A stretch of DNA of 64,000 nt from NCBI GenBank assembly GCA_945861145.1, contig CAMATL010000005.1, positions 2,653-66,652 of the forward strand, read 5' to 3'. How positions within the stretch are numbered: the first letter of the stretch is position 1; every line of letters begins with the position of its first letter. This document shows, in pieces, positions 1 to 5,283 of this stretch. Under the pieces are notes generated by a model. That model ran no database searches. It was not told where the DNA came from and saw only the letters and a list, made by a program, of their open reading frames with translations. A program made the translations under genes and the position numbers. Origin of the DNA: a candidate division TM6 bacterium GW2011_GWF2_37_49. GTDB taxonomy: Bacteria; Babelota; Babeliae; Babelales; RVW-14.

Positions 1-477
1 CTCATTGCGAATCGGAGAGGTTGGATCTTCTTTTCGTTCTGATGCATTTTTAAGAGCCAAAAGAGCTGCTTGATTTGCAGGATCATGTTCAAGTATTTTG
101 CTTGCAACAGAGACAGCCTCTTCTACACTTACAGCTCCCCATGGATAATCGAAAAGAAAAAGTAATCCTCCATCATCAGTCGGATCACGCGGCTGCACTA
201 ATTCATACATCACTCGCGCATGATGTGCTGCAACGGCATAAGCCCCCTCTAGATAATTAATGCCACAATCCGCTATAACAAATGCAAGTCGGAGAAAAAA
301 TTCTTTTTCTTGCGTTGCAAGCAAAAACTCAACAAAGGCGTAAGAACAAAAATTGCTATCGTCATAAGCTAAAAGAAACAAAGACTCATCAATTTGCTTT
401 TCAGTAAGATTGAGTATTTGTTCGCAGGCAGCAGAAAAATCGCCACTCCTGACAGCTTGAATAAATTGCTCAGACAT
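1..477 (-). CDS. Putative immunity protein (runs off the window edge), paralog of 2532..3479
   Basis: Not in the ORF track. Manual translation from ATG at 477 gives MSEQFIQAVRSGDFSAACEQILNLTEKQIDESLFLLAYDDSNFCSYAF...YLEGAYAVAAHHARV...EDPTSPIRNE, which aligns along its length with 2532..3479. It lies directly downstream of the toxin gene. Confidence 0.8.
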   Translation of the reverse strand, partial: MSEQFIQAVRSGDFSAACEQILNLTEKQIDESLFLLAYDDSNFCSYAFVEFLLATQEKEFFLRLAFVIADCGINYLEGAYAVAAHHARVMYELVQPRDPTDDGGLLFLFDYPWGAVSVEEAVSVASKILEHDPANQAALLALKNASERKEDPTSPIRNE

Positions 478-500
478 AATTTCAATCTCCACAATAGATT

Positions 501-1415
501 TTACTTTACCCATGCATTACTAATCGTTTCGATACCATTAATTAATCTATATTGAACCTCAACAATGCGATTACAGTAACTCGCTGCTTTAATAAAAACA
601 TCAGAGGTTTTACTATCAGGTCTAGATGCACCCGCTGTCATAACCGTTGTAATTATCTTTACAACCTCATCCCAATTGTTTTTTGGATCTGGAACTAATT
701 CAGGCCATTTGTGTTTATCCTGCAAAATATGATGCTTTTTATTTGGGTCAGATAAAGAATCCTTAAAACACTTCTCTAAGTCCCGCACCGCCTGCGCTTG
801 ATTGATTGCTATCCCTGCTGTACCTATGGCAATGGCTCCGACAGAAACTACCGCCTCAGCAAATGCCCATGACCCTAAAGCAAACAAACTATCAAAGACA
901 AGCTTTACCCCTATCGCAATAGGAACAACATTGTGAGTAAGAAATTGAAATTTCGTTATAAAAAACGTATGCGGCGCCTCCGTTGAAATGTCGTAAACAA
1001 TACACATTTCTTCATTTGCATTACACCGCATCACTTCACGACACGGTACATGATTGCCCTTGCTATCAAGAAAATGGCTTGTAAGTGCAAAGTCAGACGC
1101 TAAAACCCACTGTTGCTCTTCTGGATCAAAGAAGTACTGATCAGGGGCTGCCACAATAACTTCTTCTCTTGTTGTCGTGAGGACCACCGCACTGCTGCTT
1201 GACCGGCTAGAAATAGCCGTTACTCGCGACTGCACAATTTTTTGTGCCGATAGATCAAAGCCAAGAATTTCATCCCCAACCTGAAAATCCTCAACACTCT
1301 TTTCGTCTAGCGCAGTCGCAATTACCGTTCCCTTAACAACAGATGGGGTAAGTTGATTTGTAGACAGTAAAAACACGGCAACGAAAATCATTACAAAGTG
1401 AGAAAATATCTTCAC
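501..1415 (-). CDS. Secreted polymorphic toxin: signal peptide + Hint domain + Ntox35-like predicted RNase tip
   Basis: Hydrophobic N-terminus; Hint-like SVVKGT...EDFQVGDEIL...VYDISTEAPHTFF...LTHN; C-terminal HHILQDKHKW...VEVQY...ISNAWVK resembles Ntox35 (His plus KH motif). Confidence 0.75.
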   Translation of the reverse strand: MKIFSHFVMIFVAVFLLSTNQLTPSVVKGTVIATALDEKSVEDFQVGDEILGFDLSAQKIVQSRVTAISSRSSSSAVVLTTTREEVIVAAPDQYFFDPEEQQWVLASDFALTSHFLDSKGNHVPCREVMRCNANEEMCIVYDISTEAPHTFFITKFQFLTHNVVPIAIGVKLVFDSLFALGSWAFAEAVVSVGAIAIGTAGIAINQAQAVRDLEKCFKDSLSDPNKKHHILQDKHKWPELVPDPKNNWDEVVKIITTVMTAGASRPDSKTSDVFIKAASYCNRIVEVQYRLINGIETISNAWVK

Positions 1416-1435
1416 GCTTCACCATTTTTCTTCAC

Positions 1436-2287
1436 GCACATTCAACATTGAAGTGCATAGAAAGTTATGAAAACGCGCCAGGTGAGGGTACAATGATTCT
1501 TCGTTCAATCGAAAAGAATGAAGTGATCAATCATGCCATAAGACTACCCTCACCTGACACAGGCACAAAGATGCCAAATTTATGGGCTCAAGGGAAGTAA
1601 AATCACGCAACAAAAAATTGCCGCTGAGCTTGATGTAAATCAAGCAACAATAAGCAGAGAATTGAAGAGAAACTCTGGCAAGCGGGGTTATCGTTACAAG
1701 CAAGCTAACGAGAAGGCTGAGCAGAGAAAGTATCCATCAAGAGGTGCGTGTTGCAAGATGACACCTGAAAATACTAGCCAAATAGAGAAAATGCTTTGAG
1801 AAGATCAGCTGCCTCCTGAGCAGATTATTGACCGACTGGAGCTGATTGGCACTATGCAAATAAGCCATGAGAGGATCTAACTGCCCATCTGGAGAGACAA
1901 GCGCGCTGGTGGATCTTTATATAAGCATCTACGCCGGAGTGGTAAAAAGTACAACAAGCGTTCAGGAAGGCTGGCCGGTCGCGGCCTTATCCCTAATCGT
2001 GTTGATATAGGGCTCCGGCCAGTTGAGGTAGCTGCAAAAACGCCCGTGGGTGACTTCGAAGGTGATACTATAATTTGCAAAGAGCATCGTGGTGGTATTA
2101 TGACCATGGTTGATCGTGTAACTAAGGTTGCCCTGATACACAATCTTTCAAGCACCAAGGCAGACTAAACTGCTGCTTCCATAATCAAGCGCATGCTTCC
2201 AATTAAGGAATTGGTGTTTACAATCACAACGAATAACGGCAAAGAACTTGCAAAACATGAATCTGTTGCTGAGAGCCTCAAGGCAAG
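1436..2287 (+). mobile_element. Decayed, 3'-truncated IS30-family element
   Basis: Frame from ATG 1533 reads YPHLTQAQRCQIY..IAAELDVNQATISRELKRN..ISHERI..FEGDTI..VDRVTK..TNNGKEL, with four in-frame stops (1539, 1797, 1878, 2166). Probable left IR near 1436-1460 (TTCAACATTGAAGTGCA). Confidence 0.85.
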
Positions 2288-2290
2288 TAA

Positions 2291-2518
2291 AATAAGAATA
2301 ATTGGTCAAAGCTTGTGCCAGATCCAAATAACAATAATAACTGGGATAAAATTGTTGAAATCATAGCAACGGTTATGGCACAAGGGGCACATGGACCATA
2401 TAAAAACAGTAAAGAGGTTATGGTTGCCACAGAAACAGTGAGTGGGCATGTTGTTGAGGTGACGTACAAAATTATTGACGGTGTTAAGACTATTAGTAAC
2501 GCTTGGGTAAAGCCTTAG
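2291..2518 (+). pseudogene. Orphan toxin C-terminal fragment (Ntox35-like)
   Basis: NKNNWSKLVPDPNNNNNWDKIVEIIATVM...VEVTYKIIDGVKTISNAWVKP is clearly homologous to the C-terminus of 501..1415; the N-terminal part is lost at the IS30 junction. Confidence 0.8.
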
Positions 2519-2531
2519 ATTAAGGATAAAG

Positions 2532-3479
2532 ATGAACTCTGAGTTGTTTGTTAAAACCGTTAAGATTGGTGCTTTTGATGAAGCACAAAAACAAATGTCT
2601 AATTTTAGTGATCAGAAGATAAGGGACACTTTATATCTTATTGCTAGTCATGATAGCAATATTTGTTCATATGCATTTGCTTTATTTTTAATTTCTACAG
2701 AGAAGTCCGTTCTATTTCATGGATTTGCCAGCTTGATAACTGAAATGGGAATATGCTATCTGAAAGGCGCTTATGAAGCGTCGGCCTATCATGCAAGGGT
2801 GATCTTTGAGTTATCTCGATTAAATGATCCGACAAACGATGGAGGTATATTTTGTCTTTGCGGTTATCCAGAAAGGCCTATTAGAGCAGAAGAGGCGTTT
2901 GCAGTTGCTCATGAAATTCTTGTACATGACCCAAATAATAAGTTTGCTTTGGAGGTTATTAACGAATCGGCTGAATGGGTAGAAGATCCTTTGGTCCCTC
3001 CTCGTAATGAGTCTGAGCAATTGGAGCAGTACATCATTGCCGGTAAATTTACTCAAGCTAAGGAACTACTTTCTGCTGTGAGTACGCGAGAATTGTATGC
3101 AATGCTGCTGTGCCTGGGTTGCGAAGAGCGTAACTTATGCGCCTATGCATTCACCTGGTACCTCATGCAAGAGAAAGAAGAAGCGGAGTTGCACTACCTT
3201 GCCTATCGGATTGTAACGCTTGCGTATCCTAGAAATATGAACGGCTGTGATGCTGTTGGCTTATTTCATCTTAGGCGAGCGATGGCTCTTGATCATGAGA
3301 ATGAAAAGTACGTAGAGCATTTTTTAATGCTTCATACGCCTGCAATGGGACCTACTCCATTGATTAGTGATGATGAAGCAGAAAAAATAGCGAAACAATC
3401 GATTGAAAGAGATAACTGCAATATGGTAGCGACCAATCTTTTGAAAAAACTTGGCAGGCATGATTCAAAATATGACTAA
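2532..3479 (+). CDS. Putative immunity protein with internal tandem duplication
   Basis: Follows the toxin tip, with an AAGGA RBS. Two ~145-aa halves: SNICSYAF..GAYEASAYHAR..EEAFAVAHEIL..DPNN and RNLCAYAF..GCDAVGLFHLR..DEAEKIAKQSI..DNCN. Confidence 0.75.
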   Translation: MNSELFVKTVKIGAFDEAQKQMSNFSDQKIRDTLYLIASHDSNICSYAFALFLISTEKSVLFHGFASLITEMGICYLKGAYEASAYHARVIFELSRLNDPTNDGGIFCLCGYPERPIRAEEAFAVAHEILVHDPNNKFALEVINESAEWVEDPLVPPRNESEQLEQYIIAGKFTQAKELLSAVSTRELYAMLLCLGCEERNLCAYAFTWYLMQEKEEAELHYLAYRIVTLAYPRNMNGCDAVGLFHLRRAMALDHENEKYVEHFLMLHTPAMGPTPLISDDEAEKIAKQSIERDNCNMVATNLLKKLGRHDSKYD

Positions 3480-3728
3480 ATGGTAAAGCCACCTTTGAAT
3501 CATCTATTAAATCTTGATCTAGCAGTTGTCACCGAAAAGATTTCTAAAAAAATCCTTAATGTTGGTACGTACAGTACGGATATTAAAAATCTGAATGAAG
3601 CGACTCCGGAGCAAGAAGAGGCCGAAAAGCGGCAGAAAGAGGAAGCCGCGAAAAAAGAGCATGAGAGGGAAAAGCAAAAAGAAGCGGGGCAGGGAAAAAA
3701 AGGAGAAGAAAGAGAAAGAGGAACTTGA
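3480..3728 (+). CDS. Small, highly charged hypothetical protein (possibly a fragment)
   Basis: Abuts the stop of the immunity gene; E/K-rich tail. Confidence 0.35.
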   Translation: MVKPPLNHLLNLDLAVVTEKISKKILNVGTYSTDIKNLNEATPEQEEAEKRQKEEAAKKEHEREKQKEAGQGKKGEERERGT

Positions 3729-3817
3729 GTAATCTAAAAATGACCTTGATTTACGGACCATGCGACAGCGCACAAGATACAGACCAAATCACAAAGCCAT
3801 ATTTTCAACCATAAACA

Positions 3818-4177
3818 CTAAGCATCTAGCATCATTTGTAGATTACGCACAAATCCTTGAGTCTTCTTTCCAAGCACCCCAAAAAATTGCGCATCAACCG
3901 CTTCAACATCTTTCATCGCTTTTTTAAGCTTCGCAAGACCAGATAATGTAACTTGTGGGTATTTTGCTCCTTCATCACCCTCTTTTTGGATGCGCTGAAT
4001 CAATCCCTTTTTCTCAAGACCTCGCAGAACTTGCGAGGTCATCGTTACATCACAGCATGTAAATTTTGCCAAACTTTGTTGAGTGACAAGAGCACCGCTT
4101 TTAGCAAGATAACCAAGCCCTGCCAGCAAAACAAATTGCATATGCGTAATCTCGTGACCGTCAAATAGGGTTACTTT
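3818..4177 (-). pseudogene. MarR-family regulator, N-terminally truncated
   Basis: ITHMQFVLLAGL..TQQSLAK..DVTMTSQVLRGLEKKGLIQR winged-HTH signature; the frame is closed by a stop at 4178-4180, so the usual first helix is missing. Confidence 0.6.
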
Positions 4178-4182
4178 TCAGC

Positions 4183-5283
4183 TTATTTCGTCCTAAAAAG
4201 ATCCTTAAAGTCCCCTCGCACATTCTGCTTGCGCTGACCAATTACTTTTTCAGCCCCAGCGATCACATGGCGAGCACACACGGTATCACTACGTTCACGC
4301 ACTGCCCAGATAGCCATCTCATTAACCATATTTTTAAAATCTGCAGCACACAGGCCTTCGCTGCCATTTGCAATCTGTTCATATAACTCGTCAGTTATAT
4401 CTTGGCCCAAGAGGGGTAATTTTTGTACATAATGACGCAAGAGCTTTGTGCGAGCAACTTCATCAGGCAGCGGCACATGAATAAGGCGATCAAATCTACC
4501 AGAACGCTTAACAGCAGGATCAAGCGAACCTGCGTTATTTGTAGCAGCAATCACCATCACCGAATCATCGGTAGAAAAACCATCAAGCTCTGTCAGTAGC
4601 TGATTAATAGTCTGTTTATATTCTTGATCTCCGCCCCCGCCTGTAAGCGCCGAACGATCTACACCGGCAACCGCATCAAACTCATCAATAAACAAAATTG
4701 ACGGGCGACGCGCTCGCGCTTCAGCAAAAAGCTGCCGTACGCGTGCAGCACCCGTACCAACATACATCTCAATAAATGACGAGCCGCTGGCGTGTACAAA
4801 GCTACAATTTGCTTCGTTAGCTATTGCTTTGGCAATCATTGTTTTACCGTTACCAGGAGGACCTTCCAGCAAAATGCCTCGCGGCATACGTGCACCAAGC
4901 CGACGATATACTTCTGAAAATCGTAGATAGTCAACGATCTCTGTAACTTCAAAAAGCACTGCTTCAATACCCACAATATCTTTAAAATAAACCCGACTAG
5001 GATCTTGTGGTTGCTGCTTTTGATTTCCTGGCGAGCGCGTTGGTGCGTTATCCCAACCACCTCCATTATTCCCCCCACCGTCGCGCTGCTGCGGAGGCAA
5101 AGAATTATTATCCCGCCCTTCCTCAAAAGATTCAGCCGCCTGCATTAATGGGTTTCCCGCAGGCAAAACAAGCTGTCGCGCAGACTTATTCATCTTATTC
5201 AATAAATTAAAGAGCTGGAAAGCGTGTATGTGAGTTACCCCAACTCCAAGAAATGTAAAAACAAGTAGTTTCCCTATCTTCAC
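4183..5283 (-). CDS. FtsH-like AAA+ ATPase lacking the M41 protease domain, with signal peptide
   Basis: Walker A GPPGNGKT, pore loop FIEMYVG, Walker B ILFIDEFD, SRH LDPAVKRSGRFDR; ends after the AAA lid with no HEXXH. Confidence 0.85.
   Translation of the reverse strand: MKIGKLLVFTFLGVGVTHIHAFQLFNLLNKMNKSARQLVLPAGNPLMQAAESFEEGRDNNSLPPQQRDGGGNNGGGWDNAPTRSPGNQKQQPQDPSRVYFKDIVGIEAVLFEVTEIVDYLRFSEVYRRLGARMPRGILLEGPPGNGKTMIAKAIANEANCSFVHASGSSFIEMYVGTGAARVRQLFAEARARRPSILFIDEFDAVAGVDRSALTGGGGDQEYKQTINQLLTELDGFSTDDSVMVIAATNNAGSLDPAVKRSGRFDRLIHVPLPDEVARTKLLRHYVQKLPLLGQDITDELYEQIANGSEGLCAADFKNMVNEMAIWAVRERSDTVCARHVIAGAEKVIGQRKQNVRGDFKDLFRTK

Follow-up and report, generated by a model that had tools for sequence, protein, structure and literature searches.

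How might a bacterium that appears to be a parasite of protists use a toxin that consists of little more than a putative self-cleaving domain and a ribonuclease (RNase)-like tip? This question is raised by a gene pair at one edge of a 64,000-nucleotide (nt) stretch of DNA, hereafter the window, from the candidate division TM6 bacterium GW2011_GWF2_37_49. The window covers positions 2653 to 66652 of contig CAMATL010000005.1 (C5) in an assembly of 57 contigs and 1.26 Mb that is 95.5% complete. A preliminary description, made from the sequence alone, had divided the 304-amino-acid (aa) product of the first gene into a signal peptide, a Hint domain, a hydrophobic stretch, and a toxin tip, and had assigned an immunity function to the gene that follows. 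All four segments are present. We propose that the pair encodes a small, Sec-exported, self-cleaving polymorphic toxin and its immunity protein, a reading to which we give an even chance. Direct support comes from the domain anatomy, the pattern of catalytic residues lost and retained, the junction motif, the linkage of toxin and immunity genes, and the shuffling of modules. From these we infer export, leader cleavage, self-cleavage, a route over the outer membrane (the genome has secretins), entry through a membrane, RNase activity, and the identity of the target.

The toxin, its Hint domain, and the segment that follows

The toxin open reading frame (ORF) starts with GTG and runs intact to a stop codon at 501-503 (Table 1). 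The GTG start is supported because close homologues share the initial M-K-x-F. The leader resembles a Sec-type signal peptide: it has a single Lys, its core is strongly hydrophobic, and a T-P-S|V site lies where it meets the Hint domain. A lipoprotein signal was considered and dropped, given that the leader has no Cys. In a Pfam scan, the toxin had no match to RHS, FHA, PAAR, or LXG, in keeping with the earlier claim that it lacks an RHS, CDI/FHA, PAAR, or LXG carrier, and NCBIfam returned nothing useful. We modeled the protein with AlphaFold2 (AF2) from an alignment of 149 sequences. The predicted local distance difference test (pLDDT) averaged 83, with values above 90 for the Hint domain, below 50 for aa 167-205, which the model leaves without structure, and about 93 for the tip.

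The PT-HINT family (PF07591) of Pfam matched toxin aa 32-157 with an E value of 7.4e-6 and 26.7 bits, just below the cut-off of 27.7, and Hint_2 and Intein_splicing matched weakly. Among the 149 relatives, 105 match PT-HINT at E <= 0.001, and a paralogue on another contig of the genome (C24) scored 41.9 bits. The top Foldseek match of the AF2 model was 2LWY, a bacterial intein-like (BIL) domain from Clostridium thermocellum (E = 4.6e-12; target template modeling score, TM, 0.92; root mean square deviation, rmsd, 1.4 A over 139 columns). Furthermore, a profile of five close homologues aligned toxin aa 25-162 to 2LWY residues 4-138, with the two domains ending in ...THN and ...VHN, respectively. 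The predicted structure thus confirms the Hint (horseshoe) fold that had been proposed for aa 25-162.

The set of residues for C-terminal cleavage is complete in the window toxin: H149 (the F-block His), H161, and N162. Intein position 1 is Ser25, which lies at the signal-peptidase site; block B reads A-P-D-Q, and the +1 residue is Val. We considered a splicing intein and rejected it, since splicing needs Cys, Ser, or Thr at position 1 with an N-flank, T-x-x-H in block B, and a +1 nucleophile, a set that this protein does not have. Across 140 N-terminal Hint domains, the block-B His column holds Gln in 115 and His in 23; at the block-B Thr column, 51 have Ser, 37 Ala, and 13 Thr. Of these domains, 121 retain the F-block His, and 131 end in His-Asn, the other rows having gaps at that site. 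Hint domains inside long proteins from the same search (n = 11) kept the block-B His in 11/11 and the block-B Thr in 8/11. At Hint position 1, 131 nonredundant relatives have Gly in 52 cases, Ser in 40, Ala in 31, and Cys in 1. This position lies a median of 25 aa from the initial Met, and Lys or Arg stands ahead of the hydrophobic leader core in 124 of the 131. Judging by these columns, the N-terminal Hint subfamily no longer has the residues for the N-terminal steps of intein chemistry, retains those for the C-terminal steps, and has acquired a hydrophobic follower. As described in a review (PMC7765530), A-type BIL domains cleave at the C-terminal Asn without ligating their flanks and without a +1 nucleophile. 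In our proposal, signal peptidase would take off ~24-25 residues and leave a Hint domain without an N-terminal flank. The Hint domain would then cut the bond after Asn162 by Asn cyclization, using the F-block His, the penultimate His, and the terminal Asn.

The fragment freed in this way would carry the 44-aa Gly/Ala-rich hydrophobic segment at its new N-terminus, followed by the Ntox35 BECR-type RNase. The segment has 5 Gly, 9 Ala, and a mean Kyte-Doolittle hydropathy of 1.5. Among 126 proteins with at least 60 residues beyond His-Asn, 109 have a hydrophobic segment that begins at +1; these segments span 19-58 aa (median, 33) and contain 16% Gly. The C-terminal junction conforms to the motif (T/V/A)-H-N-F-x-P, and Pro occupies +3 in 77 of the 109. 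Behind the internal Hint domains of long proteins (e.g., 2,186, 2,552, and 3,411 aa), the follower is mostly nonhydrophobic (30-aa mean hydropathy, -2.2 to +0.2), the exception being a 563-aa protein with an internal Hint domain and a hydrophobic follower. We propose that the segment, once unmasked, would engage the target membrane and help the RNase into the target cytoplasm.

Topology is the weak point of this exported-toxin model. The leader might instead export the Hint domain only, with the segment serving as a stop-transfer anchor and the tip remaining on the cytoplasmic side of the producer, bound by the immunity protein. A periplasmic domain would then be shed through Hint cleavage, and the toxin would spread by vesicles or lysis or, tethered to the membrane, act in cis as an addiction or abortive module. 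Putative outer-membrane vesicles have been reported from a different Dependentiae bacterium (PMC6561590). The sequence of the immunity protein shows no leader, no exporter genes are encoded near the toxin, and Kyte-Doolittle windows score the segment as membrane-spanning. A positive flank marks the cytoplasmic side of a membrane helix (the positive-inside rule). The 15 residues after the segment fit that rule, being net positive in 80 of the 109 relatives, neutral in 19, and negative in 10; in the window toxin, the same flank has a net charge of 0.

The translocon scale points the other way. With the values of Hessa et al. (2005), the best 19-aa window per segment had a median of +3.3 kcal/mol, compared to +1.2 for 18 membrane-helix windows from two transporters of the same genome, and only 9 of the 126 segments had a window under +1 kcal/mol. 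Because the segment is marginal on this scale, its passage through SecYEG is plausible. In addition, tips of the family match exported antibacterial toxins (ColE3, Ntox21, and Ntox35), intact orphan immunity genes fit defense against an incoming toxin, and a conserved self-cleaving domain outside the cell makes little sense if its cargo stays inside. We regard the anchored arrangement as unlikely and prefer the exported toxin.

The Ntox35 tip and its immunity protein

The tip matched Ntox35 (PF15534) over toxin aa 224-303 (E = 4.9e-9), and its 37.2 bits lie above the Pfam cut-off of 23.6, as the preliminary description had anticipated. H229, K234, and H235 are invariant across 5 close homologues, and H229 and H235 are at least 90% conserved among 43 tips. 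The table of Zhang et al. (2012, Biol Direct 7:18) lists an H + KH motif and a predicted BECR fold for Ntox35, and its entry gives neither a HINT association nor an immunity family. When modeled alone with AF2, the tip reached a pLDDT of 92 and consists of helices followed by four strands. We compared this model with 48,161 chains using VIA-align. The best matches were the CdiA-CT of K. pneumoniae (6cp9; Z = 7.1, rmsd 3.2 A, 87 residues aligned), BrnT (3u97; Z = 7.1, rmsd 2.6 A, 73 aligned), and colicin D (Z = 6.5, rmsd 2.7 A, 78 aligned), followed at lower Z by further CdiA-CTs, RelE, and YoeB. The top 14 rows (Z 4.9-7.1) include six CdiA-CT toxins, colicin D in two entries, BrnT, RelE, and YoeB. 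A sequence search of the Protein Data Bank with the tip gave no matches at E <= 10. On the modeled structure, we assign the tip with moderate confidence to the BECR-type RNase toxin fold, in agreement with the fold predicted for Ntox35.

The gene that had been noticed 23 bp past the toxin, absent from the ORF track, is real and is complete in the contig, where it encodes 314 aa (C5:2185-3129). It extends past the window edge and was missed by the ORF track because only 159 of its 314 codons lie inside. Its start ATG at 477 (MSEQF...) follows the toxin stop by 23 nt, GGAG stands 9 nt upstream, and homologues begin at the same place. An alternative ATG at 513, which would yield a 326-aa protein overlapping the toxin gene, is less likely. 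The protein has two tandem helical modules of ~145 aa that resemble tetratricopeptide repeats (TPR), and single-module relatives measure 144-168 aa. We found no Pfam family for it; its family profile resembles designed TPR proteins (E = 3.7e-7). Four TPR immunity families, TPR-Imm1-4, are described as pairing with BECR toxins (Li et al. 2022, PMC9424270), and the present family may be one of these.

An immunity function, as the preliminary description had it, is supported by strict adjacency and by a complex model that passed its controls. In this genome and six relatives, 11 of 11 distinct Ntox35-tip ORFs directly precede one or two genes of the helical family. For the complex model, we combined the 326-aa form of the immunity protein, whose numbering is used here, with tip aa 206-304. 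The model scored 0.81, and the best of three controls scored 0.00. Of 80 solved complexes, 58 attained this mark, as did 2 of 110 mismatched pairs; because the model was built on alignments of our own, these counts apply to it only roughly. Runs agreed in at least 84% of contacts, with a partner pLDDT of at least 87. The modeled contacts run mainly between module 1 (residues 42-152) and tip residues 223-235, which include H229, K234, and H235, along with the sheet. The model thus supports binding of the immunity protein over the catalytic His residues of the tip. In our proposal, a cytoplasmic two-module TPR-like immunity protein would cover this catalytic His face in the producer and its kin. 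The most likely target would be a rival bacterium, for instance another Babeliales strain or a bacterium living in the same host cell.

A wider search found 25 members of the immunity family. Among them is P0178, a 159-aa hypothetical protein of Paenibacillus nuruki (E = 1.5e-37), so the family is not confined to the Dependentiae phylum. If an Ntox35 toxin adjoins P0178, the toxin-immunity pairing spans phyla.

Related toxins in the phylum, the genome, and the island

To characterize the distribution of the N-terminal module, we built a profile from its five closest sequences. At E <= 1e-5, it matched 94 of 261 phylum genomes, all of which belong to one order, including 70 of 189 good-quality genomes, and it was found in 61 of 145 genera. 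The matches lie nearly always at the protein N-terminus, in open frames mostly of 250-650 aa. Against 1.84 billion metagenome representative proteins, the same profile gave 2,991 matches at E <= 1e-3, of which 299 were at E <= 1e-10. In a set of 153 proteins, made up of the best 150 of these matches and three others, a Hint domain is present in 137 and starts within 60 residues of the N-terminus in 125.

The preliminary description had suggested a search for the same N-terminus with swapped tips, and such proteins exist. Among 149 proteins, Pfam identified Ntox35 in 34, Cytotoxic (ColE3) in 17, Ntox21 in 8, Ntox37 in 7, and Ntox17 and GIY-YIG in 1 each. One relative carries EndoU, and many family members have long C-terminal regions that match no toxin family. 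Identities between pairs of proteins are mosaic. The window protein and P0002 are 80% identical in the Hint domain, 33% in the hydrophobic segment, and 90% in the tip, and the toxin paralogue on contig C4 and P0004 are 54%, 80%, and 80% identical in the same parts. Taken at the level of sequence, the module behaves as a polymorphic-toxin carrier, with a conserved N-terminus, varied tips, and module shuffling. Across 33 loci, no accessory gene recurred near the toxin genes beyond small immunity-like downstream ORFs. Some Hint-module toxins with unknown tips are followed by recurring or tandem-paired small ORFs (L012:2441-3043 with L016:407-1039; L030:4166-5222; L031:3819-4925), which are likely further, unnamed immunity families.

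Other searches were narrower. Word-index homologue searches, which missed nearly all of the family, gave 4 matches with the protein and 6 with the 149-row alignment, and a contig scan returned a single locus. Annotation of 20 relatives by cluster yielded only "hypothetical protein." The ESM Atlas holds short PT-HINT clusters in Bacillota, Actinomycetota, and Pseudomonadota (scores, 0.80-0.85), which we treat as a lead only.

The genome itself holds several members. Contigs C20 and C5 join through a 74-nt exact in-frame overlap, and the island across them starts with a ~557-aa toxin, a 153-aa single-module immunity gene, and an intact IS30-family transposase (C5:1159-2151). The ~557-aa toxin begins with a leader, a Hint domain, and a hydrophobic segment, continues with a middle part of ~230 aa, and ends in a charged linker and an Ntox35 tip. 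On the strand opposite to the intact IS30 come the 314-aa immunity gene and the 304-aa toxin gene, and after them the degraded IS30 copy and the remaining features of Table 1. Contig C4 encodes a 305-aa toxin paralogue, which shares 65% identity and is accompanied by a 318-aa immunity gene, and two further proteins of 534 and 347 aa share the N-terminal module and have other C-termini. The genome total is five N-terminal Hint-module proteins with at least three kinds of C-terminus, and four Ntox35 tips, all above the Pfam cut-off. A sister genome has a 48%-identical toxin-immunity pair. The window pair does not stand alone: it is one member of a multicopy, IS30-rearranged island and of a phylum-wide family.

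Table 1. Features of the toxin locus, in positions of the window
Feature	Position	Strand	Basis
Immunity gene, 5' part (159 of 314 codons)	1-477	-	Contig ORF, start and ribosome-binding site, internal duplication, homologue alignment, complex model
Toxin gene	501-1415	-	304 aa; ORF, Pfam, AF2 (mean pLDDT 83), close homologues
Ntox35 tip, aa 207-304, BECR-like fold (predicted), H229 ... K234-H235 motif	504-797	-	Pfam, tip-only AF2, VIA-align, conservation in 43 tips
Gly/Ala-rich hydrophobic segment, aa 163-206, from +1 of the predicted cleavage site	798-929	-	Hydropathy, pLDDT <50, relatives
Hint / A-type BIL (PT-HINT) domain, aa 25-162, T160-H161-N162 at its end	930-1343	-	Pfam, Foldseek, profile alignment, catalytic-column counts
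Signal-peptide-like N-terminus, Sec-type, aa 1-24 (MKIFSHFVMIFVAVFLLSTNQLTP)	1344-1415	-	Read from sequence; pattern in 131 relatives
Degraded IS30-family transposase, aa 1-251 of 330, 4 in-frame stops	1533-2285	+	tblastn, 54.6% identity to the intact copy
Orphan 3' remnant of a second Ntox35 tip, without H...KH, abutting the IS30 remnant	2291-2518	+	Pfam, 35.8 bits, profile positions 21-78 only; upstream in-frame stops; DNA alignment
Second immunity gene, an intact paralogue of 315 aa (61% identity to the 314-aa one)	2532-3479	+	ORF, alignment
82-aa fragment homologous to the linker of the ~557-aa Hint-Ntox35 toxin	3480-3728	+	Sequence comparison

Could the window pair be a decaying selfish cassette, a remnant of IS30 rearrangement in which the 304-aa gene is out of use? 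An island with one intact and one degraded IS30 copy, a truncated tip, and a toxin-linker fragment would suit such a history. Against it, the 304-aa frame is intact, every catalytic position is retained in both Ntox35 and the C-terminal Hint set, related pairs lie elsewhere in the genome (65% identical) and in a sister genome (48%), and the gene occurs in RNA-library contigs of two studies (presence only). We consider decay most improbable.

In 10 studies, metagenome runs from lake and freshwater sites contain DNA nearly identical to window 1-3800; two of these rows may be where the window DNA came from. In one metatranscriptome run, a 1,802-nt contig reproduces window 1-1464 exactly and spans the toxin, the immunity gene, and beyond. 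The same run has contigs over the orphan tip and the second immunity gene and none over window 1525-2032, at the IS30 remnant. The contig end at 1464 is an assembly repeat boundary rather than a transcript end, since a contig from a DNA run ends at 1463 too. An RNA run from a second study contributed an identical 241-nt contig within the toxin gene. We take the RNA-library contigs as signs of gene presence only: strand, level, and start are unreadable from contigs, and DNA carry-over is possible.

Several neighboring genes were recorded as well. AAA+ ATPase paralogues flank the island in opposite orientations (366 aa, window 4183-5283, minus strand; 632 aa, C20:1899-3797, plus strand). Both have a leader-like N-terminus and an FtsH-like ATPase core with no visible protease part, and the 632-aa protein has two ATPase modules; the C4 paralogue has no ATPase of this type in its vicinity. 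A 107-aa ORF (window 3818-4141, minus strand) that separates the island from the AAA+ gene encodes a putative small winged-helix (MarR-like) regulator. The 534-aa paralogue (C24:1212-2816, minus strand; L004) has a C-terminus of ~330 aa without a Pfam match, and it adjoins two secreted proteins of ~460 aa, paralogous to each other, and a short fragment (C24:2969-3226) that resembles a TLC transporter. A 503-aa trmD-like gene with a long insert (C4:53511-55022, minus strand) lies 1.5 kb from the C4 toxin pair.

To judge from its genes, the organism is fairly described as a double-membraned energy parasite of protists. The genome carries 4-5 genes for TLC-type (ATP/ADP-translocase) transporters, compared to none in 14 control genomes, and also encodes signal peptidase I (LepB), two Omp85 proteins, and three secretins. 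The 41 phylum genomes scanned first, its own included, range from 0.8 to 1.8 Mb. One homologue of the immunity protein, labeled "Candidatus Babeliales bacterium" by NCBI, is identical in sequence to an ORF of another genome from the same order. The earlier suggestion of a likely protist parasite fits this reduced Babeliales/Dependentiae genome and its TLC transporter genes. Type II secretion components and two gspD copies are described for all TM6 genomes examined in one study (PMC4776705), and Sec export with many leader-bearing proteins for one member of the Dependentiae (PMC6561590).

Such a way of life raises the possibility that the toxin is an effector directed at the host. The segment would then insert into the host or vacuole membrane, the tip or other C-termini would act on host RNA, and the immunity protein would provide self-protection only. 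The look of an energy parasite, with TLC genes that the controls lack and a Babeliales genome of 1.26 Mb, is in line with this, as are the long C-termini of many members that match no toxin family. Chlamydial inclusion-membrane proteins have bilobed hydrophobic domains, which the length of the segment recalls. Zhang et al. (2012) have also argued for the use of such toxins by intracellular bacteria against their own hosts. The same authors, however, treat adjacent immunity genes as marks of interbacterial conflict; every Ntox35 tip that we examined has an immunity gene, orphan immunity genes are maintained, and the experimentally tested Ntox35 acts against bacteria (10.1101/2025.07.24.666436). 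A host-directed effector is therefore rather unlikely in our view.

The exported, self-cleaving toxin also invites a bolder reading, which we think unlikely: that the leader-Hint-segment unit is a previously undescribed, self-contained delivery device that works without a dedicated secretion machine and is the main effector route of the Dependentiae. The Hint domain could cage an autonomous membrane-translocating segment until Asn cyclization. C-terminal cleavage by inteins is pH-dependent, and the acid pH of the phagosome could be the trigger. The freed segment may then carry RNases, and hundreds of residues of unknown domains, over a bacterial or host membrane.

Several observations weigh against export and self-cleavage followed by RNase delivery. 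Near the toxin genes, we found neither a dedicated exporter nor a receptor-binding part, which leaves outer-membrane crossing and target entry unexplained. The positive flank after the segment would suit a stop-transfer anchor. The PT-HINT score of the window copy is 1 bit below the Pfam cut-off, and the residue at +1 after Asn is Phe, Val, or Ile, compared to Cys, Ser, or Thr in splicing inteins. The tip's VIA-align scores are middling, with 12 chains at Z >= 5 and none at Z >= 8, and a Foldseek search with the tip gave nothing at E <= 0.001, its weak rows including BrnT, ParE, and two CdiA-CT toxins. Finally, the passing score of the complex model may partly reflect likeness to solved TPR-type immunity complexes, if any exist.

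Relation to known systems

Dependentiae are widespread and almost uncultured parasites of protists whose means of attacking hosts or rivals are largely unknown. The module family offers a concrete, testable candidate weapon for them, with matches in 94 of the 261 genomes scanned. In the literature outside subscription journals and supplements, we found nothing that joins Dependentiae, TM6, or Babeliales with polymorphic toxins, Hint domains, or bacteriocins, and the words "toxin" and "intein" are absent from two Dependentiae genomics papers (PMC6561590 and PMC4776705). The kind of system is known, both as a listed class of HINT toxins and through an antibacterial Ntox35 with experimental support. 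What appears to be undescribed is the combination of a leader-fused, Gln-variant, C-terminal-only Hint domain with a hydrophobic follower and its spread through the Dependentiae. It would be a natural case of a Hint domain reduced to a single job, C-terminal self-cleavage, and set at the signal-peptidase site with a coupled hydrophobic segment.

The preliminary description had spoken of a stripped-down toxin class. The anatomy is real, and the kind is not new: Table 1 of Zhang et al. (2012, Biol Direct 7:18) lists "signal peptide + HINT + toxin" as a class of Sec-dependent polymorphic toxins. Like the HINT-processed toxins of the Sec/type II secretion route in that survey, the toxins described here have a signal peptide, a pretoxin HINT before a C-terminal toxin, and swappable tips, together with an adjacent cytoplasmic immunity gene and orphan cassettes. 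Unlike that class, the Hint domain here is the whole carrier, begins at the signal-peptidase site, and has lost Cys1 and the block-B His, and a hydrophobic segment usually follows His-Asn (109/126).

The Hint domain shares its fold (target TM 0.92) and its C-terminal His-Asn with the A-type BIL domain 2LWY. A-type BIL domains likewise occur in variable secreted proteins and cleave at Asn without ligation (Amitai et al. 2003 and Dassa et al. 2004, as covered in PMC7765530). In contrast to 2LWY, which has T..H in block B, the window toxin has A..Q, and it lacks the N-terminal flank.

The tip is akin in predicted fold to CdiA-CT, BrnT, colicin D, and RelE (Z 5.3-7.1), which places it near colicins E3 and D and the BECR RNases of the CdiA-CT/RelE type. 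A ColE3 domain occurs on 17 of 149 module relatives, and, as with colicins, immunity is predicted to act over the active site. Unlike colicins and CdiA, the toxin has no receptor-binding or translocation domain, and no lysis or CdiB gene was seen near the toxin genes.

By analogy, the closest working parallel is S8-PTS of S. aureus and other Gram-positive bacteria. There, a separate S8 peptidase cuts BetaH extracellularly, and cleavage frees a caged, membrane-active amphipathic helix by which Ntox35 reaches the membrane of its target (Mwangi et al. 2025, preprint, 10.1101/2025.07.24.666436). According to the same preprint, the S. aureus Ntox35 is antibacterial, with H199/H205 as its His pair, and the H205A variant no longer kills Listeria. 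S8-PTS tips include ColD, ColE3, Ntox21, and Ntox35 (Li et al. 2022, PMC9424270). The shared features are a small toxin without a large carrier that is exported by Sec (as we propose here), overlapping tips (Ntox35, ColE3, and Ntox21), toxin-adjacent proteolysis proposed to unmask a membrane-active segment, the same H-x5-H pair, and BECR tips that pair with TPR-type immunity families there and with a TPR-like family here. The differences lie in the producer, here a two-membraned intracellular parasite, and in the segment, here hydrophobic and Gly-rich rather than a cationic amphipathic helix. In the 95.5%-complete genome, the S8 peptidase family (PF00082) has no match. Because the N-terminal domain has the Hint fold and not that of BetaH, the protease would be built in, with the Hint domain playing the part of the S8 peptidase in cis. 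The toxins described here also connect Ntox35 with an immunity family in a second, distant phylum. If the segment does carry the RNase over membranes, the module would be a very small, portable protein-delivery unit and a built-in counterpart of S8/BetaH activation.

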